DNA of 64,000 nucleotides from a virus (IMGVR_UViG_3300032303_001800:1-64000); one strand, 5' to 3'; positions 2,069-63,240 are shown, counted from the stretch's first letter. Notes: generated from the letters alone by a model not told the origin. Made by a program: numbers and translations.

Positions 2069-2684
2069 TTTACTACCTTCTTTCATCTAGGTACTATGAC
2101 GATACACACTCTATCGGGTCATGTCAAGTCATACCTTCCGATTTTTTTTCGGGGGGGGCAAAAGTACCTTCTAGGTCATAGCACTCGACAGGATAGCCCT
2201 AAGTCAAGGCACTAGGATACACCCCTCATAGCCCCATACGAGTCATCAACATAGTAACCATAGAGAGAGAGGATACTAAGGATAGAAAGCATTAGATAGG
2301 TATCTAAAGGGGTATGGAGAGATGCCATACTCGATGCGGTAGCACAATGGCAGTCAGATGTCAAATACATTGTTATTGGATAATGAGTTAAAAGCAGTTG
2401 TGAAGTCATCGTAAAGTCACGCTACCACGCCCTCGTCTGCCTCGCGTACGCGCACGATGCACCACCAATGCACCATTATTCTATTCTATTTTCATCGAAT
2501 ACATTGTTTCATCAGAAAGTTTCCACGAAAAATGGGCGGTTTCCCCGCAAGCGTAACGAAAAAGAAAAGTTTGCGCGATGACCCCCTAAATAGCGGCAAA
2601 TCGCGCAAGTGCGCGATGCTCCAAAACAAGCCAAAAGAAAAGCCCCCACCAGCCAAAGCCGATAGGGGCAAATCTAGGGGATGC

Positions 2685-2978
2685 TTACTTATTGCCTCTG
2701 ATGAGGTGACTGATTGCTGTACCGCCCTTACCTGTCATTACTTGCTTGATAGGCTTAGAGGTGATGTAGCGGAAACCTTCGAGAGCATCTAGGGCGTGAG
2801 TCTTTTTTAACGCCCATTGACGGATGCCCTTGATGTCCCCATCTTCCTTCATCGTTTCGTACTCCGCCTGTTCTTCGGGTGTCATCGTATCAACATCGAA
2901 AAGCACCATACCAAACGCTTCTCCGGTGTTCCCATTGTTGTCAATGTAGAACATACGATTATTAACTACTGTTGCCAT
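2685..2978 (-). CDS. Hypothetical protein
   Basis: 97 aa, GGAAT RBS, CGCG palindrome upstream at 3048. Confidence 0.65.
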   Translation of the reverse strand: MATVVNNRMFYIDNNGNTGEAFGMVLFDVDTMTPEEQAEYETMKEDGDIKGIRQWALKKTHALDALEGFRYITSKPIKQVMTGKGGTAISHLIRGNK

Positions 2979-3268
2979 TGTTATTCCTATCTATGTGTTG
3001 TAAATCCTTACCCCAGAACCCTACCAGACCGAAATGAAATCTGTCAAATCGCGCTTGCGCGATACAAAAGTTCATCAGAAAGTTCCCACGAAAACTTCGG
3101 AACTCCGTAGCACACCTGTTTAACTTTGTCAATCATCGCGTATGCGCGATGACGCTATGCGCGATGCTGGGGGGAGAGGTAGCGGGAAACCCACTCACCA
3201 TCCCTTTCGGGGATGATGAGTGGGCGGGCAGAAAGGTGATGCCACTTATTTCCCTGACCTTTTCCCCT

Positions 3269-4672
3269 TTACCGCCTACCGCGTTTGCGGATGGCTTCGA
3301 CCTCACGCCCTACCCTGCCGTAGTAACGCTTATTAACGCTTGCCTTAGCGGGCTGTTTTAGGGCTTCGATAGCCCTTTCGGTGTCCGGCACTTGGATAAT
3401 GCCGTTTCGCCAAAGCATCTTGGCTACGATTTCCGTCAAATCATCGCTACCCCTATCGGTGGAGCCGGTGACTTGTCCATCGCAGACCCAAACAATAGGC
3501 TCGTTGCCCTTCTTGATAGAGATGGCAAAGTCTAGGGCGGGAGCATCTACACCGTTGCCAACATTGGATAGGTTCGCTAGGGCTTCGGGGGCTACCCGCT
3601 TACCATCCCTGACCAACATGAAAGCGTTAGGCTTGTTGGTCTTGTCGTGCGGGAGATGCGAGTAGGCAAAGACGGTGGCATTAGGCGCGTGGTCTAGGAT
3701 GCGGTCTAAGTCATCGCTATCCAAACTCATTGAGCCTGAAATGTCAATCACCACGATACCGCCCTTAGCCTTGCGCTTGATGGCAAAGATGCGCCTTTCG
3801 CTATCGGTGATTAGGCGGGATGGATACCGCACCGCACCGCCACTATTTATCGCCCGCTTCTTGGCATGGATGTTGCCCTTGCTACGGATGCTAAGGGGTA
3901 GGTCTGTTTTCCAAATCAGGGGAGCGAACACATCTGCCCCGCTACCCACTTCGTAGCGAACCCCGCCCTTGCCGTAGAACTCGCCTACCGGCATCTGCGC
4001 TTCGCCTAGTAGGTGCTTTTCTACCTCTTTAGCCAACGCTCCGGTGTGAGCCACAAAACCGTAGGGGGCTTCGATACCGTCATCGCTTAACTCATAAATC
4101 TCACCGTTGGCGAGAGTATCGGCATCGTGCCATTTCCACGACTTTTTCATTTTCGCCTGAATAGCCCGCACTTCGGTTGCCCACTCCGGTTGCCCGCCCG
4201 CCTTAAGCCCTGATGCGAACTTGGCGAACGCCTTAGTACCGGCTAGGGATGCTCCGGTAAGGATGGCTTCATCGTGAGCCTTGCGAGTACCGCGTTCTGC
4301 TAAGTCCTCGCCCGCTTGCTTTTCGTAGCCGGTAACGATTTCGGTAGTGTCAAAACCGCGACCCGATGAAACGCGGTTAAGACGGTACTGCTCTACCGCC
4401 ATTAGGGTCTTTTCCCCTACCCCGCGCTTATCTGCCACAGCCGTAATCGCTTCACTACTAAGGGGCGAGATGTTGGCTCGCACCATCTCACGCCCGCGTA
4501 GTACCCGCGCCGTTTCACCATTAGCGGGTGTGCTAACGGTGCGATTGGCAAAGTTGGTACTGCCTTCGCCATCGCTAACTTTCCAGCCCGCTATTGGCTC
4601 GTAAGTCTGAACATCCCGCCGAACCGCTAAAGCGATTTCGGGGTATGCCACTACTGTCTCTTGCTTTTCCAT
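3269..4672 (-). CDS. VWA (von Willebrand A) domain protein, CobT-like partner of a MoxR ATPase
   Basis: MIDAS-like VVIDISGSMS and VWVCDG motifs in the C-terminal third; adjacent to AAA+ gene; start refined to MEKQET. Confidence 0.85.
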   Translation of the reverse strand: MEKQETVVAYPEIALAVRRDVQTYEPIAGWKVSDGEGSTNFANRTVSTPANGETARVLRGREMVRANISPLSSEAITAVADKRGVGEKTLMAVEQYRLNRVSSGRGFDTTEIVTGYEKQAGEDLAERGTRKAHDEAILTGASLAGTKAFAKFASGLKAGGQPEWATEVRAIQAKMKKSWKWHDADTLANGEIYELSDDGIEAPYGFVAHTGALAKEVEKHLLGEAQMPVGEFYGKGGVRYEVGSGADVFAPLIWKTDLPLSIRSKGNIHAKKRAINSGGAVRYPSRLITDSERRIFAIKRKAKGGIVVIDISGSMSLDSDDLDRILDHAPNATVFAYSHLPHDKTNKPNAFMLVRDGKRVAPEALANLSNVGNGVDAPALDFAISIKKGNEPIVWVCDGQVTGSTDRGSDDLTEIVAKMLWRNGIIQVPDTERAIEALKQPAKASVNKRYYGRVGREVEAIRKRGRR

Positions 4673-4849
4673 GTTCTTACCTTTCATAAGAAACTTAGTC
4701 ATTTAACTAAGTGATGAAACACTACCACATCCCACGCCCACCGATGGGAACATCGCGCGTGCGCGATACCAAAAATCTTGCGCGATGATACCATCATGGG
4801 CGAAATGAAGGGGCGAGGTCTTGCGACCCCGCCCCGACAGTTCGGGCGA

Positions 4850-5572
4850 TTAACTCGCCGATGCTCGCAAGGCATCCACGACAGCCTCACCACGATGCTC
4901 GCCAAAGGAGAGGCGTGCGGCTCGTTCGGTGTCCATCTGCGCTTCGAGAGTAGCGAAAGCGTAGAAGGCTCGGATGGATGCCCTACGGCTTGGCTCGGCG
5001 GTGATTACTGCCGATGCCACGACCCGCAAGCGTTCCGGCAAAGTCATCAGAGCGTTCGGGTGCGGGGCGTTGATTTCGAGAGCCACAGGAAAGCGGTCAC
5101 GCAAAGCCACCGGCAAATCGTCAGGATGTTCGATGTTACTAGTCATCACGACAGAGAAACCATCCAACGGCTTAATGACTTCGCCGGTAGGTAGTTCCAA
5201 AGTTGCCGATGCTTCGCTATCGGTCATCGCCAACAGAAGGGATGAAACATCGCCGGATGCCTTGTCACACTCGTCAATAACGAGGCGTGCGCCCTTAGTT
5301 CCATTACCCATCCATGCCTTCGATGCGTATCCCAAAAGGTACTCAAAGCCACCGTTAGCGTTCGGCATCCATGAGCCGGTTACATCTGCGCTCGTCATTT
5401 CTTCGGAGCAGATAAGACGGTGACTACCGGCTTCGTTGATACCCATAGTAAGACCACCATAGGTCTTTCCGGTTCCGGTTGGACCAAAAAGGATAATACG
5501 GTTAATACCCGCATTGACTACATCCTCAAAGTCCTGCCAGCATTGTGCCATAGGCAAGTTATTGTTTTCCAT
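4850..5572 (-). CDS. MoxR/CobS-like AAA+ ATPase
   Basis: Walker A GPTGTGKT, Walker B LVIDECD, MTSN sensor, ALRDRF arginine finger. Confidence 0.9.
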   Translation of the reverse strand: MENNNLPMAQCWQDFEDVVNAGINRIILFGPTGTGKTYGGLTMGINEAGSHRLICSEEMTSADVTGSWMPNANGGFEYLLGYASKAWMGNGTKGARLVIDECDKASGDVSSLLLAMTDSEASATLELPTGEVIKPLDGFSVVMTSNIEHPDDLPVALRDRFPVALEINAPHPNALMTLPERLRVVASAVITAEPSRRASIRAFYAFATLEAQMDTERAARLSFGEHRGEAVVDALRASAS

Positions 5573-5931
5573 TATTACGACTACCTTTCTAGTAGTTGGC
5601 TTCGGGAGTTTCCCTTAGCCGATGAAACAGTACCACATCTCTTAGCACTTAGCAAATCACTTCGCAAAGAACTTCGATGGGTAGAACCCTACCACATCCG
5701 AAATCAAAATCGAGGCACATCGCGCGTGCGCGATAGAAAAAAAGTTGCGCGATAAGAATGCCCTTCACAAACTTTCCAGAAATCTCCGAGAGTTTTTGCT
5801 TCTACCTCAAAGAAAAACAGAAATCAAGCATCGCGCTTGCGCGATGTACGCACGCGCGATGTTCCTGCGCGATGACGGCGGGGTAGGCAAAAAAATGGAG
5901 CGAGCCGAAGCCCGCCCCATCTTTCCAGCCA

Positions 5932-6357
5932 TTACCACCAACTATCGTAATAGACTTCGTAATCACCGGACATCGCCTTGCGAGCCTCGGCAATAAACTT
6001 GAGGTCATCTTCCCTATCTTCCGGTTGGCTCTCACCGAAGAAAAAGCCTTCAGTAGAGGGTAGTGCCTCGCCCAGCACCGCGCTCTCTAGTTCCTTGAGG
6101 TCATCCCAAGTAAGTCGGATAGGCTGACAGTTAAAGCCCTGCTCCGCATGGTAGCCCTGCGCCGATGCCTTCTGATAGAATAAATCTTCCATCCAGCCCT
6201 GAAGGTTAGGGTGCTTACGCCAATAAGAGATTTGGACATAACTCTCTGTCGTAATCGTGTCGTTCTCACCCACTTGTTCGATGCTCTCACGAACATAGGA
6301 GAAATCGGTGTTTGCCTTGTTAGGGCGTACTGCGTATGCGTATTGGTCAAGACCCAT
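5932..6357 (-). CDS. Conserved phage hypothetical protein (MGLDQY...YWRKH type)
   Basis: MGLDQYAY N-terminus, YWRKHPNLQGWM, GFFFG and YYDSWW end resemble a recurrent phage family; start refined. Confidence 0.75.
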   Translation of the reverse strand: MGLDQYAYAVRPNKANTDFSYVRESIEQVGENDTITTESYVQISYWRKHPNLQGWMEDLFYQKASAQGYHAEQGFNCQPIRLTWDDLKELESAVLGEALPSTEGFFFGESQPEDREDDLKFIAEARKAMSGDYEVYYDSWW

Positions 6358-6468
6358 ACTTTCCTTTCGTCTAGGGAGTTTCCCTATCAACATCCATCTT
6401 ACCAGCCAAACCCCAAATCGGTCAAATCGCGCGTGCGCGATGCCTAAAACCTTGCGCGATACTGCCCC

Positions 6469-6684
6469 CTACTCCTCGATTTCGGTGTAGTTGCTCTGAA
6501 TACTGCGAGCCAGCAAGCGAACTTGGCTGATGGTGTATCTTTCTTGGTCATCACTAAGGTACTCAAACACCTCTGTAATCTCCTGCGCTGGTTCGCTGGT
6601 GGCTCTGCTGTAAGCATTGAGAGCGTGTTGGATAATAGTTAGTTCTTGGCTGGTTAGTTCTACTTTGTATCTCCACATAGTCAT
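6469..6684 (-). CDS. Hypothetical protein
   Basis: 71-aa ORF inside a repeat-bounded cassette. Confidence 0.6.
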   Translation of the reverse strand: MTMWRYKVELTSQELTIIQHALNAYSRATSEPAQEITEVFEYLSDDQERYTISQVRLLARSIQSNYTEIEE

Positions 6685-6784
6685 ACTCTATCTTATCTCA
6701 GCCCGCCGAAAAGAGCATCGCGCGTGCGCGATGTCTTGACAGGGGGCAAAGAAATGGGGGCGAGCCGTAGCCCGCCCCCAAGTC

Positions 6785-7045
6785 TTAGTAGTTGGTCTTA
6801 GCCAACTCGTAATGCTTCGCTACCGCTAGGGCTTTTCGTTGAGCAAGCACCGTCTTGCGCTGTTCGATGAGCAACAGGAACGGATAGACAAACAGATACC
6901 CGATGAGTACCGATGTCGCAACATCCCCATAGTGCCACCACTTATCCAGCGTAATGCCAAGCGTTTCCTGACCGCGAGAGACTACGCCGGTACAGAGCGT
7001 AACCGCCACACAGAGAGCCACTAGAACCTTCATGCGGAACTTCAT
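6785..7045 (-). CDS. Small membrane protein
   Basis: Two hydrophobic stretches; coupled to the 7045..7278 gene. Confidence 0.65.
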   Translation of the reverse strand: MKFRMKVLVALCVAVTLCTGVVSRGQETLGITLDKWWHYGDVATSVLIGYLFVYPFLLLIEQRKTVLAQRKALAVAKHYELAKTNY

Positions 7046-7278
7046 TATTCACCATCCTCATCATCGAAATCGTCATCCTCAAAGCGTTCGCTTTCGAGAG
7101 CGACATCAAACCACTCCATAACGGTACGGAGCAGAGCATCGTAGTCTCCAGCCGTAGCCTCGGCGTGGAACTCACTCCACTCATCGTAGCGACCCGCCCG
7201 CTTCATAGCGGTAGAGCAAGCCCCAAGTATGGAGAAAGCGTTACCATCGCCCAACTCCACTTTCATTTTTTCTGACAT
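7045..7278 (-). CDS. Conserved phage hypothetical protein, acidic tail
   Basis: GNAFSILG...GDYDALL pattern; FEDDDFDDEDGE C-terminus; GAAAGGTAG RBS. Confidence 0.75.
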   Translation of the reverse strand: MSEKMKVELGDGNAFSILGACSTAMKRAGRYDEWSEFHAEATAGDYDALLRTVMEWFDVALESERFEDDDFDDEDGE

Positions 7279-7549
7279 AACTACCTTTCTTGTATGGGTG
7301 TTTCCCTTACGATGAAAACACTACCACAAAACACACCAAACTTTTGACACATCGCGCACGCGCGATAGCAAAAATCTTGCGCGATGACGGTGACACCGGC
7401 AAAGAGAAACCCCCCACCGGTCTGAAAGGGATAAGCGACCAATGGGGGGTGGGGCGGTCGGGGGAAAGAGAGTAACCCCTAACGCCACCTAGAACTTGGA
7501 AAGGTGGGGGGTGAGAAACCTAGTGGAATCCCACCCCCCGATGAAGCGA

Positions 7550-7897
7550 TTAAAACCCTTGTAAAAACTCCTGCGCCTCATCTACGGCATCCTTGATAGC
7601 GATGTCCTCAATGACATGACCGTAGTTCTCATTAAAGAAACTACTAAGCCTACGAAGGATGATTTCGAGGCTAAGCCCCTTAAACCCTACTTCTTGTGGG
7701 ATGTCCTCATGAGCGATACCCTCTACGGCATTAACCATAGCAGAGTGTATCTCCTCTAGCAACTTGACTAGGAAACCTAGTTCGCCCACCTCAAGAGTGA
7801 CATCTATCTTCTCCATAAGAGGAGCATCAACATTACCAAAGTCCTCGTTGATGAACTCAAAGAGAAATGTCTCCTTGTCGTTGTTGTTGTTATCCAT
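7550..7897 (-). CDS. Acidic hypothetical protein
   Basis: Start refined to MDNNNNDK after GAAAGG RBS; the longer ORF call reads through intergenic repeats. Confidence 0.7.
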   Translation of the reverse strand: MDNNNNDKETFLFEFINEDFGNVDAPLMEKIDVTLEVGELGFLVKLLEEIHSAMVNAVEGIAHEDIPQEVGFKGLSLEIILRRLSSFFNENYGHVIEDIAIKDAVDEAQEFLQGF

Positions 7898-8118
7898 CTC
7901 TACTGCCTTTCTTGTCGTATCCCTTACGACAACAATCACTCTACCACACATCGAACCGGAAATGTGGAACATCGCGCGTGCGCGATACAAATGCTCATCA
8001 GAAACTTTCCAGAAATCTTCGAGAAACGCAAGCGTCGCGCATGCGCGATGAAGAAAAACCTGCGCGATGTAAAGGGGAGTTGGCAAGGCGAACACTTGTT
8101 CGCCCCGCCGGTGAATCA

Positions 8119-9021
8119 CTACTCCTCTTCGCCCCACTTCTTGCTTTCGATACCTAGCACTAGGTCGCACGCTTTCTGCGCTCTGCTGGCACTCTTGACC
8201 AAGATTTTCGGGTCATTCTTGAGTACCTTTAGCCACCCTGCGATGTACGCGGTGCTGTTTTCGATAGTGCTAGGAGCGATGCCGGTTTCCGCGCATAGGA
8301 AGGTCGCTGTGAACTCCGCGACTAACTCCTCTTCGCTGTATGTCGCATCGCCAAAGTAGTGCGCTTCGACTACACCTTCGCGTGCTAGTCGGCTCTTGTG
8401 TCCGGTGCTGTGCGCTGTCTCATGGAATAGCGTTGAGTAAAACGCTTCATCGCTTGTGAAACTATCCTGCTTAGGCATCGTCACCGCATCGCTACTAGGT
8501 GAGTAGTAGGCACGCTCTCCGGCAAAGGTAAGGCTAGGCGCTCCGGTGCGGGCGTAGTAGGCATCCACGATGCTCTGCGCTCCTTCGATGATGGCAACAT
8601 CTCCGCGTACCTCTCCGCGCTCCGTTGTCGGCATCTCCTTCTCTACCCACTCCGCTTGCTCCGCGTTAAATACGCTGAAGTAACGCATTACGGCACTCTT
8701 CTTGAGTTTGCCATCCTTGTCGGTAGTCTCTAGTGGTTTCCACAACACTACCGGCGTACTCTTCTCACCCTTCTTGACCTTGCCACCCATCGCTTCTATC
8801 TGCTTGTAAGTTCCCCACCACTTGCTTGTGTATCCACCGGCTATGGTCGCAAACATTAGGAGCATCTTGTTAGTACCGTTGTATGCCTTCTTGCTACTAA
8901 GGCTAGTTGGATACACTCCCGATGTAGTCCACTCCTTACGCCACGCGGGGATGCCACCCTTCTCTAATGCTTCGATGATGCCTTGTGCCACAATCTCGTA
9001 GGGACTCTTTCTCTTTTCCAT
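8119..9021 (-). CDS. ardC: ArdC-like antirestriction ssDNA-binding protein with zincin-like domain
   Basis: N-terminal PAWRKEW...YNGTN...TYKQ...GGKVKKGEK; C-terminal HETAHSTGH, YSEEELVAE, YIAGWL. Confidence 0.92.
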   Translation of the reverse strand: MEKRKSPYEIVAQGIIEALEKGGIPAWRKEWTTSGVYPTSLSSKKAYNGTNKMLLMFATIAGGYTSKWWGTYKQIEAMGGKVKKGEKSTPVVLWKPLETTDKDGKLKKSAVMRYFSVFNAEQAEWVEKEMPTTERGEVRGDVAIIEGAQSIVDAYYARTGAPSLTFAGERAYYSPSSDAVTMPKQDSFTSDEAFYSTLFHETAHSTGHKSRLAREGVVEAHYFGDATYSEEELVAEFTATFLCAETGIAPSTIENSTAYIAGWLKVLKNDPKILVKSASRAQKACDLVLGIESKKWGEEE

Positions 9022-9192
9022 AACTACCTTTCTACCTAGTCACTCTAACTAGGTGCTTTCACCTTACACCCTAGCAGACCGGAACCGGTCGCATCGCGCG
9101 TGCGCGATAACGAAAATCTTGCGCGATGACACCGATGTACCAAAAGAAAAGCGGGGCCGACCTAAGCCGACCCCGCCTCTCGACACCTTCGA

Positions 9193-9351
9193 TTAGATGA
9201 TGTCAAACTCCTTGAGGATGTTGTCAATGTTTCTGTCCAGCAACTCGAAGAGAGCCTTCTTCGACTTCTCATCCAAATGCTCGAAGTCGTACTCGTTGAG
9301 AGCAAGTACGTACTCGTACCACACTCCGTCAATCGTTTCACCCTTTGCCAT
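9193..9351 (-). CDS. 52-aa hypothetical protein (not in ORF track)
   Basis: MAKGETIDGVWYEY...KEFDII; GAAAGGTAG RBS; own cassette. Confidence 0.6.
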   Translation of the reverse strand: MAKGETIDGVWYEYVLALNEYDFEHLDEKSKKALFELLDRNIDNILKEFDII

Positions 9352-9562
9352 TACTACCTTTCATGTTGGCAACCTACCAACTACAACCACATTAGCACAT
9401 CGAACTAACCAAAGAAACGTCGCGCATGCGCGATACAAAAGGTCATCAGAAAGTTTAGGGAAATCTTCCTGAGACACCCGTAACGTGCCACGTGCGCGAT
9501 GAAAATATCGCGCGTTAGACGCATGCGCGATACCCATGCGCGATGACGGCGGGGAATACCCC

Positions 9563-10006
9563 TTATTCCCCCCTCTCGTAGTAGGGGAAGAACTCGAAGG
9601 ATGCGCCCATCTCATCGTGGCTACTCCGCGTGACCCTGAGTGTTCTGTTCTCGAAGTCGTACTCCCAGCGCAGGATGTAGTCTCCGTTGATGCCGAGCAT
9701 GGCTACTAGTCCGTCTGCCGTATCGGTGTGGGCGCTGTCTGCTGTCTGCCGTTGCCATCCCATCCCTTCGGCGTGGATGTAGTAGTAGTCGGTGTCGGTG
9801 AAGTCATCCATCCATCCCTGAACGGTTGTCACGAAGTCGTTGCGGGCGTAGTCCCAGCAGTCTCCATAACACTCCGTAGTGGGCGTAACCGTTACTCCGC
9901 AGGTGTCGCACCTACCGCCGTTCGGTTCGCTGTCGTATCCGACACTACACTCCTCGCACCAATAGCAGGTACAAGTGTTAGTGAGTGTTCCTTTAATCGT
10001 TGCCAT
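9563..10006 (-). CDS. Hypothetical protein with N-terminal Cys cluster
   Basis: CTC, WCEEC, CDTC; GAAAGGAA RBS. Confidence 0.72.
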   Translation of the reverse strand: MATIKGTLTNTCTCYWCEECSVGYDSEPNGGRCDTCGVTVTPTTECYGDCWDYARNDFVTTVQGWMDDFTDTDYYYIHAEGMGWQRQTADSAHTDTADGLVAMLGINGDYILRWEYDFENRTLRVTRSSHDEMGASFEFFPYYERGE

Positions 10007-10163
10007 TGTATTTCCTTTCGTTGGTTGTTACTACAAGTTCCACTCTACACGCTGAGAACTAAAATCGGGGACATCGCGCGTGCGCGATAGCCCCAATCCT
10101 TGCGCGATGCTAGGGGGGGGATACCCCGCGGGGCGAACACTTGTTCGCCCCGCGAGGGTCGGC

Positions 10164-10454
10164 CTAACTCAACTCTTCCAACTCGCTCATCACCGCACGA
10201 ATGTCGGTGGTGATGCTGTCAAGGTCGCTGATGTTGTCGATGTCGCTCTGTGCGCTGTCAAGGTAATCCTTGGCGTGCTCGATGTTTCGCACCGCATCGG
10301 CCAACTCGCTCTGCGCCCCGCTGACATCATCCTCAAGGGATGAGAGGGAGTTCATAATCCCGCCCAATGTTTCACGTGGAACAATCACCACATCCTCACC
10401 CAACAATGCGGGCAACAACTCCAACAACTTCTGTACCGCTTCATCCTTAGTCAT
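10164..10454 (-). CDS. Acidic coiled-coil protein containing an internal parS site
   Basis: Heptad-rich 96 aa; the VPRET peptide is encoded by the parS palindrome. Confidence 0.7.
   Translation of the reverse strand: MTKDEAVQKLLELLPALLGEDVVIVPRETLGGIMNSLSSLEDDVSGAQSELADAVRNIEHAKDYLDSAQSDIDNISDLDSITTDIRAVMSELEELS
10368..10383. promoter_or_regulatory. parS: parS site (ParB binding)
   Basis: TGTTTCACGTGGAACA; matches bacterial parS consensus TGTTNCACGTGAAACA when read on the minus strand. Confidence 0.8.
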
Positions 10455-10600
10455 TATGACCCTTTCCGCTAGGTGCTTTACCTAACAGTTACAACTTACC
10501 AGAAAATCTACGAGGTGTGTCACATCGCGCACGCGCGATAGCCGAAAACCTTGCGCGATGGGGGGAGATTGGGATGGGGGTCGCCCCCCACCCCGCTCCC

Positions 10601-10990
10601 CTACATACTCGTAACCGTGAACCCGATGTAGTCTTCGATGTCAAGGTTAGGGATGAAGATGCGCTTCTTGTAGTCCAACAAGTAGGCGATGGTTTCATCG
10701 TCTAATCCAAGAGTCTCGCCTTCGTCATCCGTTCCACCGGTGATGACGATGTTACCCACCGTGACATCGGTGAGGCCGTAGGAGTCGGACCAAAGAGCGG
10801 TACCGTAGGAGTTTTGCTCCAACCCGTTCAGTTTGCCTTCTTCATTGACCCACATCTCAATACCGGTAGCGGGGAGTCTTACGCACTCAATCCATCCACC
10901 GACACCCTCTTTAAGCATCTCGTAGCAGTTGGAGTTATCGAACTCCACTACCTCGAACACTCCATCGGTGCTGACCTTAATAGCCTTCAT
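10601..10990 (-). CDS. DUF3846-like protein
   Basis: VGGWIECV, MWVNEEGKLNGLEQN, GNIVITG motifs; start refined to MKAIKV. Confidence 0.8.
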   Translation of the reverse strand: MKAIKVSTDGVFEVVEFDNSNCYEMLKEGVGGWIECVRLPATGIEMWVNEEGKLNGLEQNSYGTALWSDSYGLTDVTVGNIVITGGTDDEGETLGLDDETIAYLLDYKKRIFIPNLDIEDYIGFTVTSM

Positions 10991-11195
10991 ACTTACCTTT
11001 CCGCTAGTGAGTTTCACTAACAGCAATCATTGTAGCAGGTAAAAATCCAAACCGCTATTTTTTTTGCGCGATGAATACAAATCCTCCTCAGAGAGTTTTT
11101 GGAAATCTCCACACAGTCAAGCGTCACGCGTGCGCGATGCCGCTATCGCGCACCTGACTTATGCGCGATGACGATGGGGTAAAAAAAAATCAGAG

Positions 11196-11215
11196 TTATC
11201 CACAGGTTATCCACA
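11196..11215 (+). promoter_or_regulatory. Two tandem perfect DnaA boxes
   Basis: TTATCCACA at 11196-11204 and 11207-11215. Confidence 0.8.
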
Positions 11216-11241
11216 GGGCGGGGTTTCCCCCACCCTGCGGA

Positions 11242-11257
11242 TGTTCCACGTGAAACA
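11242..11257. promoter_or_regulatory. parS: parS site (ParB binding)
   Basis: TGTTCCACGTGAAACA, matches consensus; intergenic, 26 bp from the DnaA boxes. Confidence 0.85.
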
Positions 11258-11258
11258 T

Positions 11259-11546
11259 CTACTCCGCTGATGCCAGCAGAGCATTGTAGGTTTCGACTGC
11301 CCACGCCAGCGCCTTTTTACGCCCTGACACCCCGCGCCCAAAGGTGAGCCCGCTGATGTTTTCCGCGCCCTTGAGAGCGGTAAGGTGGCGGGACATCTTC
11401 ATCCCTGGGAACTTGATTTCCATCTCCAGCATGGAGATAACCATCTTTAGGCGGTAGGCATCCATCGCCATTTCGCCGGATACTACGCGGATGCCCGTTT
11501 CATCCTGCTCGACTTGCGAGCCATCGGGGAAGACTACGTTACTCAT
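11259..11546 (-). CDS. Hypothetical protein
   Basis: Start refined to MSNVVF after GAAAGGG RBS. Confidence 0.7.
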   Translation of the reverse strand: MSNVVFPDGSQVEQDETGIRVVSGEMAMDAYRLKMVISMLEMEIKFPGMKMSRHLTALKGAENISGLTFGRGVSGRKKALAWAVETYNALLASAE

Positions 11547-11756
11547 AATGCCCTTTCCGTTCGGTGATTTACCTAACAGGTACATAATACAGAAATTTTT
11601 TGATTGAGGGGTCTATCGCGCACGCGCGATGAAGAAAATCTTGCGCGATGACGGGTTAATATTGTTAAGTCAAGTCGAATCTTGCGCGATGACGTAAGAG
11701 GCAAGGGAAAAGGGAGCGAACAGACGTTCGCCCCCTAGTCCTTGTTGCCCGTTCTG

Positions 11757-11867
11757 CTACTCGCAGTCTAGGCAAGCCATGACCGGCATGAGCCGGTTTG
11801 TGTCCTTAGACCAGACACGGATGACGGTAAGAAAACTACCGACGTAACCACAGATGTCGCACTTCAT
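11757..11867 (-). CDS. 36-aa zinc-ribbon micro-protein (not in ORF track)
   Basis: MKCDICG...ACLDCE; own TTGACT-17-TATTGT promoter and GAAAGGGG RBS. Confidence 0.65.
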   Translation of the reverse strand: MKCDICGYVGSFLTVIRVWSKDTNRLMPVMACLDCE

Positions 11868-11893
11868 TTTACCCCCTTTCCCTTTCTGCTACC

Positions 11894-11922
11894 ACAATAC
11901 CCCGCCCACCAAAAAAAGTCAA
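11894..11922 (-). promoter_or_regulatory. Sigma-A type promoter
   Basis: TTGACT-17-TATTGT with a CGCG half-site just upstream of -35. Confidence 0.75.
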
Positions 11923-12024
11923 GTCGGTTTTTGCGCGATAGGGGAGAAATCTTGCGCGATAATGGCAACTTGACCGGCAGAATGCGGGGGATGCGCCCGC
12001 ATCCCCCGCATCTAGTCTAGAGAG

Positions 12025-12291
12025 TTACCTCTCTAGCACTACGGCATCCGGCGAAAGGGTAAAGCCGGAAAGCCCCTGACGAATAAACGTCTGATGGCGT
12101 GACGTTGTTTGACTGTAATACTGATTGTTGAGATGCGTAACGCTCTCGCCCTTTACTACTGCCATGAGAGTAGAGTACGAATACACGCGGTATTCCCCAT
12201 CGCCCCACATCTCGCCCCGCATTGTGTTAGCGGTGAATGGCTTACGGCTTGCGATGTATTCGCTTGCCTTTTTGTTTGTTACCTGTGGCAT
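12025..12291 (-). CDS. Hypothetical phage protein
   Basis: Start refined to MPQVTN; YRVYSY...YYSQTTSRHQ pattern. Confidence 0.7.
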   Translation of the reverse strand: MPQVTNKKASEYIASRKPFTANTMRGEMWGDGEYRVYSYSTLMAVVKGESVTHLNNQYYSQTTSRHQTFIRQGLSGFTLSPDAVVLER

Positions 12292-12447
12292 GTTTTGCCC
12301 TTTCTCTTTCGATAGTGAAACCTTACCAGAAAATCTAACCAAAAGTAGCATCGCGCATGCGCGATAGACCAAAATGATTGTTTTTTGTTGCGCGATGTGG
12401 TATAGGGAAGTTTCAGGCGGGGTCTCCCCCGCCCTACTCCCTACCGG

Positions 12448-12606
12448 CTAAAGAAACTCAAACGGGTCTCTATCCTCAAACATCTCCTCAAACGCCACGT
12501 AGGGCATCAGCGTAATGTCTCCGTACTCCGCTTCCGCGTCGAGCATGTTCTGAAGGATGCGCTCGTTTTGCTCGCGCTCCCCTTGGCTAATCTCTTTCTT
12601 TGGCAT
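12448..12606 (-). CDS. Small acidic hypothetical protein
   Basis: Start refined to MPKKEI after AAAGGAGG RBS. Confidence 0.65.
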   Translation of the reverse strand: MPKKEISQGEREQNERILQNMLDAEAEYGDITLMPYVAFEEMFEDRDPFEFL

Positions 12607-12756
12607 ATTGCCTCCTTTGCTTGTACTGCTTGATGTGTCCACAATAGCACCCTAATCTTAAATTTTAAAGCATCGCGCGTGCGCGATACAACAATGTGCG
12701 CGATACAACAATGGGGCATTGGGGGATGGGGCGCCCGCACCCATCCCCCCGCGCTC

Positions 12757-12954
12757 CTAATGATGCCAGCGCGTATCTGACACCTTGCGCCGAGTCTCCT
12801 TGTAGGTCTCAATGCGGGTCTCCCAGAAACCAACGGTATCCGATGCGAACCGGTTAGCGATTTCGAGCATCTCCGTAAGGCGGAGGATTTCGGCATCGAG
12901 CCCCGACAGGATGGCTAGTCCCATTTCCTTTGTAAGCGTTAGTGAATCATTCAT
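12757..12954 (-). CDS. Hypothetical protein
   Basis: 65 aa, GAAAGGGG RBS, own cassette. Confidence 0.65.
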   Translation of the reverse strand: MNDSLTLTKEMGLAILSGLDAEILRLTEMLEIANRFASDTVGFWETRIETYKETRRKVSDTRWHH

Positions 12955-13142
12955 TTCGTACCCCTTTCTTAAGGTACCCCTACCTTACTACCTGAAAACT
13001 ACAATAGAAACGTCGCGCATGCGCGATGACGTTAGTCCTAGCAGATTAAAAAAGTTAAGTCAAGTCAATCCTTGCGCGATGGACTCGGTGAGCGACAAAA
13101 AAGCGGGGCGGACATTACGCCCGCCCCGCCCGTTTGATTTGG

Positions 13143-13295
13143 CTAGCCTCGCCTAGCGTTGATGAAGTAGGCATTAGGGAAGATAGAGCGCCCCATTGCA
13201 ATTGCTTGTGGCAGGTCATCCGCCCCCACAAAAAAGTAAGACGAGAAATCTATCTCGCCGATGATGATGGCGTATTCCACCCTGTAAGTTTTCAC
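13143..13295 (-). CDS. 50-aa hypothetical protein (not in ORF track)
   Basis: GTG start, MKTYRVEY..., GAAAGGGG RBS. Confidence 0.55.
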   Translation of the reverse strand: MKTYRVEYAIIIGEIDFSSYFFVGADDLPQAIAMGRSIFPNAYFINARRG

Positions 13296-13418
13296 TTAAG
13301 CCCCTTTCATTTGGCTAAGACCACTTTAGCAGATTTTTTGAGGTAAAGAAACGTCGCGCGTGCGCGATGGTACCAACCCCAGAAAAAGCGGGGCAGGTTT
13401 TACCCTACCCCGCCCCTC

Positions 13419-13577
13419 TTAGTATTGCTTCTCTACTACCTTGACAACCGCCGAAAACGGCGCGTACTCAATACGGCACGCCGTTTCGATGGCAGTTTCG
13501 GCATCGGTAGATGGTGTGGTTATGGTGATGGTGTGACCACCATCCCGCTTGAGGGTAATCTCGAAAATGCTAATCAT
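13419..13577 (-). CDS. 52-aa hypothetical protein (not in ORF track)
   Basis: MISIFEITLKRDGG...EKQY, GAAAGGGG RBS. Confidence 0.6.
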   Translation of the reverse strand: MISIFEITLKRDGGHTITITTPSTDAETAIETACRIEYAPFSAVVKVVEKQY

Positions 13578-13804
13578 TGTAGGCCCCTTTCATTGGACTA
13601 GGACTATTGTAGCAGGTTTTGAGCAGTCTGGAAGCATCGCGCACGCGCGATACATAAGCCCGTCAGAAAATTCCCAGAAATCTTCGAGACAACTCCCCTA
13701 CGCATGCGCGATTATGTCTGCGCGATATGACGCACGTGTATTCGTGCGCGATGCCGACCGGATTAAAAAACTGAGAGCGAGCCGATTTCTCGACCCGCCC
13801 CGTT

Positions 13805-13918
13805 TCAGTTTTTACGCTTCAGAAACTTTTCGATGCACGCTGTGCAAAAGTCTCCGGCTGTGCTCCGGTTTGCTCCGCATCCCTTGCACTTGTGTTTTTT
13901 GTATCCCTTCGCTGGCAT
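13805..13918 (-). CDS. 37-aa zinc-ribbon micro-protein (not in ORF track)
   Basis: CKGC...CTAC, basic; GAAAGGGG RBS. Confidence 0.62.
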   Translation of the reverse strand: MPAKGYKKHKCKGCGANRSTAGDFCTACIEKFLKRKN

Positions 13919-14068
13919 CTTCGCCCCTTTCATTTGGCTGACTCCATTGTAGGCAGATTTGCCGAAAAAAAGCAAGTTTCGCGCATGCGCGATGGGGGAA
14001 AAGTCTGTTACACTTTGCGCGATGAGGGGGCTGGGTTTGGAGCGGGGGTTTCCCCCCGCCCCGCGCCT

Positions 14069-14239
14069 CTAGTCCTCCTCTTCTTCGATGCTGTCCTCGT
14101 ACTCGACTACGCCGATTTGGTAGGCGATGGGGTCGCAGTCAAAAAGGATTTGGCTGGGGTAAAAGGTCATTGAGCCGATGGAGTAAGTGGGGTAGCACTC
14201 ATCCAGCATTTCGTCGAATCCTTCGTGTCGCTGTGTCAT
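14069..14239 (-). CDS. 56-aa acidic hypothetical protein (not in ORF track)
   Basis: FDEMLDECYP...PSQIL..CDPIAYQIG...EEEED; GAAAGGT RBS. Confidence 0.68.
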   Translation of the reverse strand: MTQRHEGFDEMLDECYPTYSIGSMTFYPSQILFDCDPIAYQIGVVEYEDSIEEEED

Positions 14240-14400
14240 TTTCTTACCTTTCGTTTTTCGGTTTTCCCGATGCTTCTATTGTAACAGAAAAATCTAACTA
14301 ATCAACTATCGCGCATGCGCGATGGCCAAAAACTGTGTTATTGTTTGCGCGATGACGTAGGGGGTCGGGTTTAGGGGCGGGCTCACGCCCGCCCCCGCCC

Positions 14401-14598
14401 CTACTTTCTAAGTTTGAGGATGATGAGCGCCGTAGCGAACGATGCCACCACTCCTAGAGCAAGTGAAACCAACCACACCAGAGCGGGCGCGGTCAAGTCA
14501 CCTACTGCCTTAGTGCTGGCGATGTAGGCAAACGCATAGACGATTACCCCCATGAGCAGAGCGAACAACTTTTCGCCCCTAGTACCTTCGCGTGTCAT
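14401..14598 (-). CDS. Small two-TM membrane protein
   Basis: Two hydrophobic helices; TTGACT-16-TATGCT promoter at 14637-14664; start refined. Confidence 0.68.
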   Translation of the reverse strand: MTREGTRGEKLFALLMGVIVYAFAYIASTKAVGDLTAPALVWLVSLALGVVASFATALIILKLRK

Positions 14599-15081
14599 TG
14601 TTACCTTTCCGTAGGGCGTTTGCCCTAACAATGAACAGCATAACAGGATGAGCGATTAAGTCAAGTATTTTTTTGCGCGATGGATACAAAAGCCCCTCGG
14701 AAAGTTCCCAGAAATCTTTGGGAGAACCTGGCTACGCATGCGCGATTGTATGTGCGCGATTACATGTGCGCGATGCTCGGCGCAGGGGCAAAGCAAAAGG
14801 GGCGGGCTTGCGCCCGCCCCCCTGCCGGTGGCTACTGCCAGAGTTTCCACCAGACCCACCCGCCCCCGATTTGGGCGCGGTCAGAGAAATGCGAGGTGAT
14901 GCGACGGATAAGAGGGCGAACTGCCTTCATTTTAACCCCTTTCAGTTGGTTAGTTACATTGTAGCAGATTTTTTAGACTTTGGAAGCATCGCGCGTGCGC
15001 GATGGACAAAAACTGTGCTAAACTTTGCGCGATGTTAGGGGGGGAGTTGGGGGCGAACACTTGTTCGCCCCGCTCCGCGCC

Positions 15082-15204
15082 CTAGAGCCACACCTCCGCA
15101 ACCTCGCAGGGAGCGCACGCCTCAAGCGTGACGCACGAACGCGAGGCGGGTGAATACACCTCGACCTCGACCGTGGGGGCATCGGCCCCGCAAAAATCGC
15201 ACAT
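15082..15204 (-). CDS. 40-aa zinc-binding micro-protein (not in ORF track)
   Basis: MCDFCG...EACAPCE; GGAAGGG RBS. Confidence 0.6.
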   Translation of the reverse strand: MCDFCGADAPTVEVEVYSPASRSCVTLEACAPCEVAEVWL

Positions 15205-15344
15205 AATAACCCTTCCGCGGGGGAGCATCCACCGCTAGAACCACAATAGCAGGAAAACGCCGAGGTGGGGAAAATCGCGCATGCGCGATGACTTGACACG
15301 GGGCAAAAGAAGAGGGGCGGGTTTCCCCGCCCCTCCCCCGCGTG

Positions 15345-15524
15345 CTACATGTAGTCGCACGCCTCGTTTTCCGCGCCGTGCGTGGATGGGGTGCCCCAAA
15401 CGATTTCGGTGGGGGTGCCATCGTAGAACGGTTCGATGTGACCGCAGGCGGAACAGCGAACGGAAAGCACATCCGAGATGGGGCAAAGGCGTGCGCCCTC
15501 GTCCCCGCAAAATGAACACTTCAT
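15345..15524 (-). CDS. 59-aa zinc-ribbon micro-protein (not in ORF track)
   Basis: MKCSFCG...RCSACGH; GAAAGGGA RBS; TTGCTT-17-TAGACT promoter upstream. Confidence 0.65.
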   Translation of the reverse strand: MKCSFCGDEGARLCPISDVLSVRCSACGHIEPFYDGTPTEIVWGTPSTHGAENEACDYM

Positions 15525-15811
15525 AAATCCCTTTCGTTTTATCGGCTTCGTTACCGATAGGAGAGAGTCTAGTCAGACTATTTAGGGAAAGCAACTATTT
15601 TTTTGCGCGATACAAAAAAGATACAGAAACTTCACAGAAACTTTTCCAGAAAGTTTAGTGCGCGTGCGCGATTGCGTGTGCGCGATGATTTCCGGACAGA
15701 GAGTTTCCCAGAAATCGCGCACGCGGGAGACAATACCGTGCGCGATGGACTCGGCGGGCAAAAAAAAGAGGGGCAGGGCTCACGCCCCGCCCCCCCCTCA
15801 AAGGCTCCCCC

Positions 15812-16030
15812 CTAAAACCATCGGGAGATGCCCGCCCAAAGGCGTAGGGCATCCTCTCGGGTGCGGTAGAGGTGTCCGTCATCGCTCAACGGCTTACCAT
15901 CGGCGCCAAACAGGGTAAGCGTGAAGAAAGAGCCGTGGTCAAACTCATGGCTCGGGTTGTAGTGGCGGTTGATGGTCGCCGTGACCTCACCCGCGGGCGA
16001 AGTGAGAGTGTCAGTCAGTTCGTAAATCAT
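15812..16030 (-). CDS. Hypothetical protein
   Basis: 72 aa; GAAAGGGA RBS; strong promoter upstream. Confidence 0.7.
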   Translation of the reverse strand: MIYELTDTLTSPAGEVTATINRHYNPSHEFDHGSFFTLTLFGADGKPLSDDGHLYRTREDALRLWAGISRWF

Positions 16031-16075
16031 TGTAAATCCCTTTCGTACTCACCGGCATTGTTGCCGATGGTACAG

Positions 16076-16104
16076 AGTTTAGTGAGCGTTTTTTAGAAAG
16101 TCAA
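16076..16104 (-). promoter_or_regulatory. Sigma-A type promoter abutting CGCG palindrome
   Basis: TTGACT-17-TAAACT; the palindrome at 16107-16122 ends 2 bp upstream of -35. Confidence 0.78.
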
Positions 16105-16203
16105 GCATCGCGCGTGCGCGATAGGGGAAAACCCCGATAAACTTTGCGCGATGACGTAGGGTTTGGTTTGGGGGCGAACACTTGTTCGCCCCCGCCCCTT
16201 GCC

Positions 16204-16482
16204 TTAGTCATCCTCTCGCGGGTTGGTGTGGGTGAGTAGGAGTTCGACTAGTGCGGTGTAGGCATCCTCGCTAGGGGAGCACCACGCTAGGCGGGTGTGG
16301 GCTAGGGCGTTCGCCCGCACCGCTTCCGCTTCCGTGGCGTACCAAAAGGCGAACAGGGAGAAATAGCGTTCGCCGTCAGATGCGCTGACCTGAACGCCGA
16401 AATAGGGGTGGGTGTCCTCGGCGTACCAACCCCAATGACGGGGTTCGTTGGTCAAGGTAACTTGGGCGGAAGTGTAAATCAT
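16204..16482 (-). CDS. Hypothetical protein
   Basis: Start refined to MIYTSA; TTGCTT-17-TAGGCT promoter upstream. Confidence 0.68.
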   Translation of the reverse strand: MIYTSAQVTLTNEPRHWGWYAEDTHPYFGVQVSASDGERYFSLFAFWYATEAEAVRANALAHTRLAWCSPSEDAYTALVELLLTHTNPREDD

Positions 16483-16828
16483 TGTAAAACCCTTTCGGTT
16501 GGTGTCGGTATTGTTACCGATGGTACTGAGCCTAGTGAGCAAAAAAGTAAAAAGCAACTATTTTTTTGCGCGATACATTTGTTCGTCAGAATGTTTTCAG
16601 AAATCTCAGCGGGGGCGTTGGGTTACGTGCGCGATGGATTTTGTGCGCGATACATTTGTTTGTCAGAAAGTTTTCCAGAAACATCGCGCAGGGGTTTCCG
16701 TATGCGTGCGCGATACATTTTCTCCTCAGAAAGTTTCCAGAAATCCTCGGAGCGCGCAGGGGTTACGTGCGCGATGCCGATGGCGAACAAGTGTTCGCCG
16801 CAAAAAAGCGAACATTTGTTCGCTTTAG

Positions 16829-16873
16829 TTATCCACAGACTTATCCACAGGCTGTGGTTTATTCTGTGGGTTA
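16829..16873. promoter_or_regulatory. DnaA-box cluster
   Basis: Perfect TTATCCACA at 16829-16837 and 16841-16849; two inverted 2-mismatch boxes at 16853-16861 and 16865-16873. Confidence 0.78.
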
Positions 16874-17055
16874 TTGGATGGCGAACGCTTGTTCGTTTTC
16901 TCCTATTCCTGACTAGTTAAGTCATGTTTCGGGCGGGCGTGCGGGGGTATGCGTTTTTATGCGTGGAGATGTGTTTTTAATCATCGGGCTAGATGTGCGC
17001 GATGTGGCGCGTAGGGCGCGGGATGTGATAACATCCCGCGCCCATCGTGGCGCGT

Positions 17056-17083
17056 GCGTGATGCGTGATGCGTGATGCGTGAT
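17056..17083 (+). repeat. Tandem (GCGTGAT)x4
   Basis: Four perfect 7-bp units. Confidence 0.95.
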
Positions 17084-17088
17084 GCGTT

Positions 17089-17123
17089 GCGATAGGCGCG
17101 GGCGTGATGCCCGCGCCTATCGC
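17089..17123 (-). terminator. Perfect 15-bp-stem hairpin after the 17134..18018 gene
   Basis: GCGATAGGCGCGGGC-GTGAT-GCCCGCGCCTATCGC; no clear U-tract. Confidence 0.55.
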
Positions 17124-17133
17124 GTGCGATGCG

Positions 17134-18018
17134 TTACAACGCTACCGCGTGACCGCGCTTTACCACACGCGATGTCCAATCTTCGACATCTTCGATGTCA
17201 TCCCATAGACCGGCGATGTCTGAGCGATGCGCAATACGCTGTCGAACATCGTTCGACATCGTAACGCTCTCATCGTGGCGGGCAAGGATGGACTCAGCGA
17301 GTGACCGCGCACCGGTAGCGATACCGCGAGACTCCAGATTATCCAGATGCCCTACGGGGTCGCGCCACAATACAGGGCAACCACAAACGCGCACCGCGAG
17401 AAACTTTCGTTCCTCGTTGATGTGCGCGACTGTCTCGCTTTCATCGCGACTCCATGCCGTCATTGGAGCCAACAACATCATCGCGTTGTTATCGTGACCG
17501 CCTGACGCGTAGAGCAGACTGTTTAGCAACAGTCCATCGGCGTTAATAGTGATGATGTTCCATGCGCTCTGCGAATGTTGCGCGTTGCGAATGATAAGAA
17601 CGCCACCATTCGTTAGGAACGATGTCATCTCTGCCAACGATGCGAAAGTGCCACTAGTCGCGATGACATCATCCATGAGCGCGCTTAGCACCTTGTCGCG
17701 CTTAGTGCGTGTTGCCATCTTCACGCGAACATCGTTCGCGGGCGTGATGACATTGACACCCTCGCGCTTTTTGTCTTTCGTGACATTGTCAGAAAGTTGC
17801 GCGATGACTGATGCGATGAACGCGTTAGCGCGATTGTAAGTAGTCATCGCTCCATGAGTGATAACACCACCATCACTAGGCGCGATGTTCGTTCGACAAA
17901 TGTGTCGCTCTGCTATCTCATCGGCGATGTGTGATGCGATGCCGTTAGCGCGTGCCATGTCTCCAATCAGTTTGCGCGTACGGTCGCGGTCTTTCGTGTT
18001 GTTGTTGATGCGTGTCAT
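17134..18018 (-). CDS. Hypothetical protein
   Basis: 294 aa from MTRINNN after GAAAGGT RBS; no motif recognised. Confidence 0.72.
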   Translation of the reverse strand: MTRINNNTKDRDRTRKLIGDMARANGIASHIADEIAERHICRTNIAPSDGGVITHGAMTTYNRANAFIASVIAQLSDNVTKDKKREGVNVITPANDVRVKMATRTKRDKVLSALMDDVIATSGTFASLAEMTSFLTNGGVLIIRNAQHSQSAWNIITINADGLLLNSLLYASGGHDNNAMMLLAPMTAWSRDESETVAHINEERKFLAVRVCGCPVLWRDPVGHLDNLESRGIATGARSLAESILARHDESVTMSNDVRQRIAHRSDIAGLWDDIEDVEDWTSRVVKRGHAVAL

Positions 18019-63152: not shown

Positions 63153-63240
63153 ACCAATCCTTTCTTAGATTGAACATCAGTATAGCAACTTTGCTGTACA
63201 TCCGTTCATTTACATGTTAAGATTACCAGTAAGGAGGATT

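Follow-up and report, generated by a model that had tools for sequence, protein, structure and literature searches.

What is the function of a short palindrome that recurs ahead of most of the genes in one arm of a phage genome? The question is raised by IMGVR_UViG_3300032303_001800, an uncultured freshwater actinobacterial phage, in the first 64 kb of its 78,430-bp contig (positions 1-64,000, here called the window), where copies of ATCGCGC-N2-GCGCGAT and of its 7-nt half-site lie between small genes. A first-pass annotation had proposed a shared control element for the arm, and this proposal is supported by three features of the sequence, namely the tie of the motif to promoters, its conservation in diverged relatives and its rigid register with the -10 box, which together make a common protein-binding control site the best reading. 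With middling confidence, one sequence-specific DNA-binding protein is predicted to recognise both the palindrome and its ATCGCGC(A) half-sites, which would constitute the upstream part of a promoter class specific to this clade.

Distribution of the palindrome and its half-sites

Nineteen perfect copies of the palindrome are found against 0.00 expected (0 in shuffled sequences), and six further 16-bp copies with one mismatch bring the total to 25, all of them intergenic, in agreement with the roughly 25 intergenic copies originally counted. The 7-mer GCGCGAT occurs 75 times on the plus strand and 24 times on the minus strand, and all 99 of these half-sites fall within 2573-17886, with none in the other ~60 kb of the genome; 96 of the 99 are non-coding and the remaining three are inside gene 17134-18018, which bears out the description of the motif as non-coding and confined to the arm. 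The solo half-sites are polar, as had been claimed, with ~51 oriented with transcription and ~5 in the opposite direction, and the extended half-site reads Y-ATCGCGC-A. The genes, ribosome-binding sites (RBSs), promoters and terminators of the arm are all on the minus strand.

2573-17886, minus: motif-bearing arm with ~29 small genes, 27 of which have a palindrome or half-site promoter of their own and 26 a terminator hairpin
3048-3063, minus: perfect palindrome, proximal, gene 2685-2978 (-35 TTGACA, -10 TAGGGT)
3135-3150, minus: one-mismatch palindrome, distal, control region of gene 2685-2978
4752-4767, minus: perfect palindrome, proximal, gene 3269-4672, with a solo half-site at 4780-4786
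5719-5734, minus: perfect palindrome, proximal, gene 4850-5572 (AAA_5 ATPase)
5830-5845, minus: perfect palindrome, distal, control region of gene 4850-5572
6426-6441, minus: perfect palindrome, proximal, gene 5932-6357
6717-6732, minus: perfect palindrome, proximal, gene 6469-6684
7351-7366, minus: perfect palindrome, proximal, operon 7045-7278 plus 6785-7045
7971-7986, minus: perfect palindrome, proximal, gene 7550-7897
8034-8049, minus: one-mismatch palindrome, distal, upstream of the second module AGATTTCTGGAAAGTTTCTGA
9093-9108, minus: perfect palindrome, proximal, gene 8119-9021 (ArdC-like)
9419-9434, minus: one-mismatch palindrome, proximal, gene 9193-9351
10073-10088, minus: perfect palindrome, proximal, gene 9563-10006
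10524-10539, minus: perfect palindrome, proximal, gene 10164-10454
11615-11630, minus: perfect palindrome, proximal, gene 11259-11546
12350-12365, minus: perfect palindrome, proximal, gene 12025-12291
12672-12687, minus: perfect palindrome, proximal, gene 12448-12606
13012-13027, minus: one-mismatch palindrome, proximal, gene 12757-12954
13353-13368, minus: one-mismatch palindrome, proximal, gene 13143-13295
13636-13651, minus: perfect palindrome, proximal, gene 13419-13577
13978-13993, minus: one-mismatch palindrome, proximal, gene 13805-13918
14308-14323, minus: perfect palindrome, proximal, gene 14069-14239
14988-15003, minus: perfect palindrome, proximal, gene 14832-14930
15274-15289, minus: perfect palindrome, proximal, gene 15082-15204
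16107-16122, minus: perfect palindrome, proximal, gene 15812-16030

The deviating copies follow a pattern. In five of the one-mismatch palindromes the altered base is the final one of the promoter-proximal arm; the sixth (3135, distal) is mismatched internally. At five further promoters the distal ATCGCGC stays in place with the proximal arm swapped for an A5-8 tract that resembles an UP element. Together, these A-tract variants and last-base mismatches suggest that the oriented half-site is the basic unit.

16559-16574, minus: A-tract variant of the proximal site (ATCGCGC plus A7 for the second arm), gene 16204-16482
15596-15611, minus: A-tract variant, gene 15345-15524
14666-14681, minus: A-tract variant, gene 14401-14598
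11924-11939, minus: A-tract variant, gene 11757-11867
11057-11072, minus: A-tract variant, gene 10601-10990 (DUF3846)

The SOS box (CGAAC-N4-GTTCG or TCGAAC-N4-GTTCGA) and the motif have no half-site in common, and true SOS boxes occur separately in the arm. At its upstream edge the arm also carries a run of near half-sites.

17056-17083, plus: four tandem GCGTGAT heptamers, each one mismatch from the half-site, adjoining a hairpin with a 15-bp stem

Cassette anatomy, promoter register and spacing

Along the direction of transcription, each cassette consists of a terminator hairpin, one or more ATCGCGCA half-sites, the palindrome, a -35-like hexamer, an extended -10, a leader, the GAAAGG RBS and the start codon. 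The GC-rich terminator hairpins follow 26 of the 29 arm genes at -17 to -42 kcal/mol, and some contain a perfect LexA box (CGAAC-N4-GTTCG), of which the arm holds eight (8089, 10134, 11717, 15054, 16175, 16784, 16809 and 16882), all in or near these hairpins and at least five of them forming the stem of hairpins that separate cassettes. The first-pass statement that the element sits just upstream of sigma-A -35 boxes does not hold for most of the promoters. The -35-like hexamer begins 0-2 nt past the palindrome and is mostly poor, with a decent match (at least four of six positions of TTGACA) in 7 of the 27 promoters and none in the other 20.

16076-16104, minus: example promoter, TTGACT-17-TAAACT, 2 nt downstream of palindrome 16107-16122

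What accompanies the palindrome consistently is instead an extended -10, TGnTAnnnT, with the TG extension present in 18 of 27 promoters. With -10 boxes assigned as TANNNT plus the TG extension and start sites placed from them, 24-27 nt (most often 24) separate the palindrome from the -10 that follows it in 22 of 24 cases, and no such peak is seen on the mirror side of the symmetric palindrome. Taking the -10 as -12 to -7, the palindrome spans approximately -52 to -37 and is centred at approximately -44.5. A generic sigma-70 promoter scan does not find the arm enriched (11 found and 11.9 expected) because most arm promoters lack a -35, and the test of register relative to the -10 was used in its place.

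The distances between sites of the same orientation, measured start to start, fall into classes of 13-17 (n=10), 19-21 (n=10), 29-31 (n=8) and 60-66 (n=10) bp. The spacing is therefore quantised, as had been noticed, with four classes where only two had been listed; the figure of two and three helical turns is an approximation, and the idea of helical phasing holds for the 19/20 and 30/31 classes, which lie one helical turn apart, and fails for the out-of-phase 14-bp class of the distal clusters. The 60-66 class bridges a second repeated module, AGATTTCTGGAAAGTTTCTGA. Its copies extend over 2512-16746, and in the 'long' control regions each is flanked by a distal half-site cluster on one side and the proximal site on the other. 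This module may be the site of a second factor.

7998-8018, minus: consensus copy of the second module AGATTTCTGGAAAGTTTCTGA, which has ~12 copies in a single orientation
ends at 16746, 16606, 15643, 14717, 13683, 11108, 9466, 5785 and 2532, minus: further copies of AGATTTCTGGAAAGTTTCTGA

Other second motifs occupy the same position in three of the relatives described below, namely TGATTGAATCAC in G005, TGAAATCC in G004 and CGCAGAAAAAAGTTAAAAACTGCG in G002.

The motif in related phages

When IMG/VR is scanned for the palindrome and for patterns of two sites, true arrays are found on at least seven distinct contigs, five of which (G001-G005) were fetched whole. In each of these five the motif is restricted to a single arm of 10-15 kb with 7-30 motif-bearing promoters, compared with ~27 in the present genome. 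The core proteins of the relatives are 30-75% identical to those of this phage, the phages sharing the motif range from 43 to 53% in guanine-plus-cytosine (GC) content, and only 7 of the ~29 arm genes have homologues in relatives, so that the motif is conserved while its flanking sequence and most of the genes that it precedes are not. A megablast search of the arm against GenBank phages gives no match, a locus search with the ArdC-like protein alone gives no relatives, and the nearest cultured phages reach a terminase identity of only ~34%.

The distance from palindrome to -10 is characteristic of each genome, being 15-16 nt in G001 (21 of 30 promoters), 13-14 nt in G002 (12 of 15), 11 nt in G004 (4 of 7) and 12 nt in G005 (19 of 20), with two values, 14 and 11 nt, on further contigs. 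The spacer sequence is not conserved, and yet the offset is fixed within 1 nt over 12-30 promoters. In these relatives the palindrome lies at approximately -25 to -43 with its centre at approximately -32 to -36, which is the place of the -35, and the tight genome-specific offsets (11, 12, 14 and 15 nt) suggest that it replaces the -35 there. The recA-operon promoters of G005, G006 and G007 have an ordinary TTGACA or TTGACT -35, which marks the arm promoters as a distinct promoter class. Solo half-sites number 10-21 per relative, compared with ~51 here, and in G002 all of them face against transcription.

A protein that probably contacts RNA polymerase

The rigid distance between palindrome and -10 across an unconserved spacer indicates that the bound protein most likely touches sigma-A RNA polymerase, and a factor in contact with the holoenzyme is favoured since a mere blocking operator would not need fixed spacing. 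An activator or sigma-adaptor role is therefore put forward as the most likely one on the evidence of promoter layout. One sequence-specific protein, probably phage-encoded, would bind the palindrome and the auxiliary half-sites, contact sigma-A RNA polymerase so as to recruit or adapt it, and in this way switch on the whole arm together. In the present genome the factor would stand at the class II activator position (approximately -44.5), and in the relatives it would substitute for the -35 in the manner of sigma appropriation or sigma adaptation, at the location that the -26 element of PafBC or the MotA box of T4 has.

Among the ~80 open reading frames (ORFs) scanned, the detectable candidates for such a protein comprise a 76-aa winged-helix protein and two WhiB-like proteins; the same scan reveals neither a sigma factor nor a phage RNA polymerase, and no integrase, classical repressor or member of the PafBC (WYL) or MotA/AsiA families (Pfam).

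61901-62131, minus: 76-aa winged-helix protein resembling the LexA DNA-binding domain, candidate binder, kept in all motif-bearing relatives
58206-58529, minus: WhiB-like protein, possible partner of sigma-A region 4, conserved in all relatives
56586-56822, plus: p78, small conserved three-helix protein, weaker candidate binder

Of these, the favoured candidate for the binder is the winged-helix protein, on the strength of an analogy with gp6 of GIL01, discussed below. Its AlphaFold2 model (predicted local distance difference test score 80) superposes best on LexA DNA-binding domains, with template modelling (TM) scores of 0.72-0.80 and root-mean-square deviations of 1.3-1.4 A (TM 0.76/0.80 for 1lea, 1.3 A for 3jso); a search of the PDB with its sequence profile does not reach LexA. 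The recognition helix and wing are nearly invariant across the motif-bearing relatives. Its family is made up of 75 clusters of proteins 71-86 aa in length from phage-sized contigs, and a few of them carry PF01726; the protein itself has no match in cultured phages. An SOS-like box (GAAC-N4-GTWC) is found in the promoter of the operon that encodes it (recA/winged-helix/exonuclease/ERF/SSB/WhiB) in six genomes, namely the window (63153-63213, minus), G001, G004, G005, G006 and G007, where it adjoins or overlaps the extended -10; it is present even in genomes that lack any perfect CGAAC-N4-GTTCG box.

Other proteins are weaker candidates or were set aside. The model of p78 has three helices and no fold match. 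The product of gene 17134-18018, the first gene of the arm, was rejected as a regulator, having weak Kelch-repeat matches, no family match and no homologue in the relatives, and the promoter of this gene is without the motif. None of the motif-bearing relatives fetched whole (G001-G005) has the N6/N4 DNA methyltransferase gene (genome 75532-76569), whose product was dismissed as a partner for this lack of conservation. The second WhiB-like protein (141 aa, genome 68277-68702) has a basic C-terminal extension of ~78 residues, and G001 has three WhiB-like genes.

Several points weigh against an activator of this kind. The offset of 11 to 25 nt across genomes is hard to accommodate in a single rigid activator-polymerase geometry, and the start sites are read from -10 boxes alone. 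The ArdC-like arm gene would be expected to be expressed at once from the host polymerase alone, which argues against the need for a phage-made activator. For the leading candidate, the SOS-like box at its own promoter implies that its target may be SOS boxes and not the palindrome; an argument to the contrary, from the absence of perfect CGAAC-N4-GTTCG boxes in G001, G004 and G005, is undercut by the presence of SOS-like boxes in all of the recA-operon promoters. Its co-occurrence with the motif does not discriminate between candidates because every motif-bearing relative shares the whole core gene set, and is also uninformative in the genomes that lack arrays (G006-G008), as these lack the arm genes as well.

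Precedents for activation and sigma adaptation

The closest precedent for the layout of the present genome is GIL01, a tectivirus of Bacillus thuringiensis, in which the truncated LexA protein gp6 activates the weak late promoter P3 from a 7+7 palindrome centred at -43.5 (PMC6182141). Both gp6, which consists of a LexA-type winged-helix domain only, and the 76-aa protein described here resemble a LexA DNA-binding domain, and the GC-containing 7+7 palindrome of GIL01 lies close in position to the 16-bp palindrome at approximately -44.5. The GIL01 system differs in having one site of unrelated sequence, compared with ~27 promoters and oriented half-sites in this phage, and the relatives depart from its layout in that their palindrome is 9-13 nt nearer the -10 than in the present genome. 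More generally, class II activators of the CRP-FNR type bind as dimers to sites centred at approximately -41.5 to -43.5 that abut or overlap the -35.

For the relatives, the better likeness is to mycobacterial PafBC, which reads tGTCgg-N10-tAnnnT promoters without a -35 (PMC8635444). PafBC promoters combine a canonical -10 and no -35 with an element held rigidly 10-12 nt upstream, and G004, G005, G002 and G001 have the same layout (gap 11-15); the gap of 24-27 nt in the present genome does not fit it, and some promoters here have a real -35. A further parallel is the sigma appropriation of T4 MotA/AsiA, in which hybrid promoters are served by the housekeeping holoenzyme and a winged-helix factor. 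The PafBC element and the MotA/AsiA box are asymmetric, unlike the palindrome. A fuller version of the sigma-adaptor idea, tentative and on present evidence unlikely, is an actinophage sigma-takeover in which the winged-helix protein, possibly together with a WhiB protein holding sigma-A region 4, would redirect the host polymerase to -35-less promoters; in that case the anchor would have moved, from one related phage to another, by a half-site or a helical turn, and the system would be a phage counterpart of mycobacterial PafBC and of T4 MotA/AsiA.

Alternative explanations

The strongest competitor to an activator is a shut-off or immunity operator, which is possible but less probable. Here the arm promoters would be constitutive extended -10 promoters that host polymerase uses as soon as infection begins, and a phage repressor, acting later or in a carrier state, would bind the palindrome and auxiliary half-sites and so silence all cassettes. 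Extended -10 promoters in actinobacteria work without a -35, the palindrome of four relatives covers approximately -25 to -43, where a bound protein would block polymerase, and the ArdC-like gene with the many tiny genes around it looks like an immediate-early host-takeover set. The differing offsets between genomes are awkward for a rigid activator, and auxiliary half-sites are most numerous in the genome with the furthest-upstream site, as though cooperative binding made up for the distance. A repressor has no need, however, for a spacing fixed to 1 nt or less over 20-30 promoters with diverged spacers; in the present genome the site does not cover the core promoter but lies upstream of the -35, and the lack of an integrase or classical repressor gene in the ORF scan counts against it as well.

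Known operators of this general kind show the same mixture of likeness and difference. The gp71 stoperators of mycobacteriophage L5 are reportedly many, dispersed and oriented with transcription, the conserved inverted repeats (CIRs) of phiC31 are said to be palindromes between genes, and P1 C1 is a repressor that acts at many dispersed operators. With L5 and phiC31 the present phage shares many copies of one short operator dispersed in actinophage intergenic regions, and with L5 it shares solo half-sites oriented with transcription (~51 against ~5), which face the opposite way in G002. The L5 and phiC31 sites serve temperate immunity repressors and have no fixed -10 register, in contrast to the fixed register seen here, and the L5 stoperators are inside transcription units, where they block elongation, whereas the present sites are between a terminator and the next promoter.

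A borrowed site for a conserved actinobacterial transcription factor, used to time or boost the cassettes, is improbable. It would permit expression at time zero, the eight perfect LexA boxes and the DnaA boxes that also occur in the arm show host-factor sites in use, and the same motif is found in phages across the GC range given above. Against this, a survey of 401 genomes evenly drawn from Actinomycetota (one of them, G097, unpublished and with a single match) finds at most two perfect palindromes per genome, 26 in all compared with 2 for the reversed control, and no regulon-like cluster in this sample, among which the true hosts may not be represented. A host search via a ferritin-like gene found nothing, and searches of the literature aimed at the motif and at conserved palindromes between actinophage genes turned up nothing relevant, neither a description of the motif nor a regulator with this site; to our knowledge, no described actinobacterial regulator has the palindrome as its site.

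A structural or recombination element without a regulatory protein (cruciform, Z-DNA, nicking or packaging signal, selfish repeat), spreading along with the cassettes, can be dismissed as highly improbable: it would suit the permuted cassette order with kept orientation, the breaking of relatives' contigs at arrays and the 12-bp alternating pyrimidine-purine run at the centre of 17 of the 19 palindromes here, but it leaves the fixed -10 register in every genome unexplained, the Z-DNA and cruciform readings are ruled out by the CC or TC central dinucleotide that breaks the alternating run in many relatives' copies and by A-tract variants that keep the same position with hairpins of -1.5 kcal/mol as opposed to -6 to -9, and these variants, the unconserved centre and solo half-sites unable to form hairpins make purely structural roles unlikely.

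Cassette turnover and gene content of the arm

Conserved cassettes that follow the order A-B-C-D-E-F-G in the present genome are arranged as A-B-E-D-F-G in G001, F-G-E-D-C-B in G004 and F-G-D-C in G002, always in the same orientation, which fits recombination between repeated modules and agrees with the original suggestion that the element gives homology for shuffling; the repeated modules would provide that homology. In T4-type phages, promoter-early stem-loop (PeSL) cassettes reportedly bracket very small genes, and the host-takeover module of SPO1 is said to be a run of tiny genes with strong promoters and stem-loops. The arm is PeSL-like in its tiny genes bracketed by a repeated promoter and hairpin (27 promoters, 26 hairpins, 29 genes) and in its shuffled order; the PeSL and SPO1 promoters differ in being plain host-sigma early promoters without a palindromic factor site, and the hosts and sequences are unrelated.

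The arrays also seem to break short-read assemblies of the relatives. G006, G007 and G008 are without arrays and without any arm gene, and their contigs end where the arm should begin, which means that the CheckV estimate of 100% completeness for G008 may be too high. G006, G007 (at its start) and G008 (at its end, ~88.7 kb) stop at the array onset (loci L192-L199 and L187-L191), and positions 4-687 of G007 hold a compressed ATCGCGCGAT variant. In the present phage the contig ends overlap exactly over 123 bp (window 1-123 corresponds to genome 78308-78430), as they do over 120 bp in G001, indicating a circular assembly, from whose coordinates the physical ends of the phage DNA cannot be read.

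With genes called here as RBS-led ORFs, the arm is 63% coding and 37% non-coding, and its ~29 genes have 32-467 codons, each of the 27 promoters driving a single small gene or pair. Recognisable families are limited to an ArdC-like protein, an AAA_5 ATPase with its 467-aa partner and a DUF3846 protein.

8119-9021, minus: ArdC-like anti-restriction protein (ArdcN plus zincin peptidase), cassette gene
4850-5572, minus: AAA_5 ATPase, cassette gene, paired with 3269-4672, the pair staying together in all relatives
10601-10990, minus: DUF3846 gene, with an A-tract promoter variant

Gene 6469-6684 (minus) has no RBS and its -10, TAAGAT (within 6684-6716), ends 5 nt ahead of the ATG, so that its mRNA is probably leaderless. 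Arm genes 12448-12606 and 12025-12291 (minus) are also present in G005, the most distant motif-bearing relative, as is gene 880-1086 just outside the arm. One of the two arm genes encodes a 52-aa acidic protein with a C-terminal FEDRDPFEF; the product of the other is 88 aa long and contains a conserved YSxTTSRH motif. Neither protein belongs to a known family.

Significance

Dispersed phage operators and phage-specific promoter motifs are of a kind already known from L5, phiC31, P1 C1, T4 PeSL and SPO1. What is new is an undescribed motif in an uncultured clade, in which a palindrome and oriented half-sites accompany each insulated single-gene cassette, and in which the -35 appears to be replaced in the relatives and the anchor displaced by 9-13 nt in the present genome. 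The insulated cassettes, permuted order and fast turnover mark the arm as a hotspot of accessory or anti-defence genes, the ArdC-like gene among them, and the repeats may account for the breaks that metagenomic assemblies of these phages show at the arm. Freshwater actinobacterial phages are abundant and their gene control is almost unstudied; the element offers a testable putative regulon in which the spacing variants of 11, 12, 14, 15 and 24 nt form a natural mutational series for studying the contact between a factor and actinobacterial polymerase. If the bound protein is indeed an activator that replaces -35 recognition, 'sigma adaptation' would extend from a host stress regulator to phage takeover.

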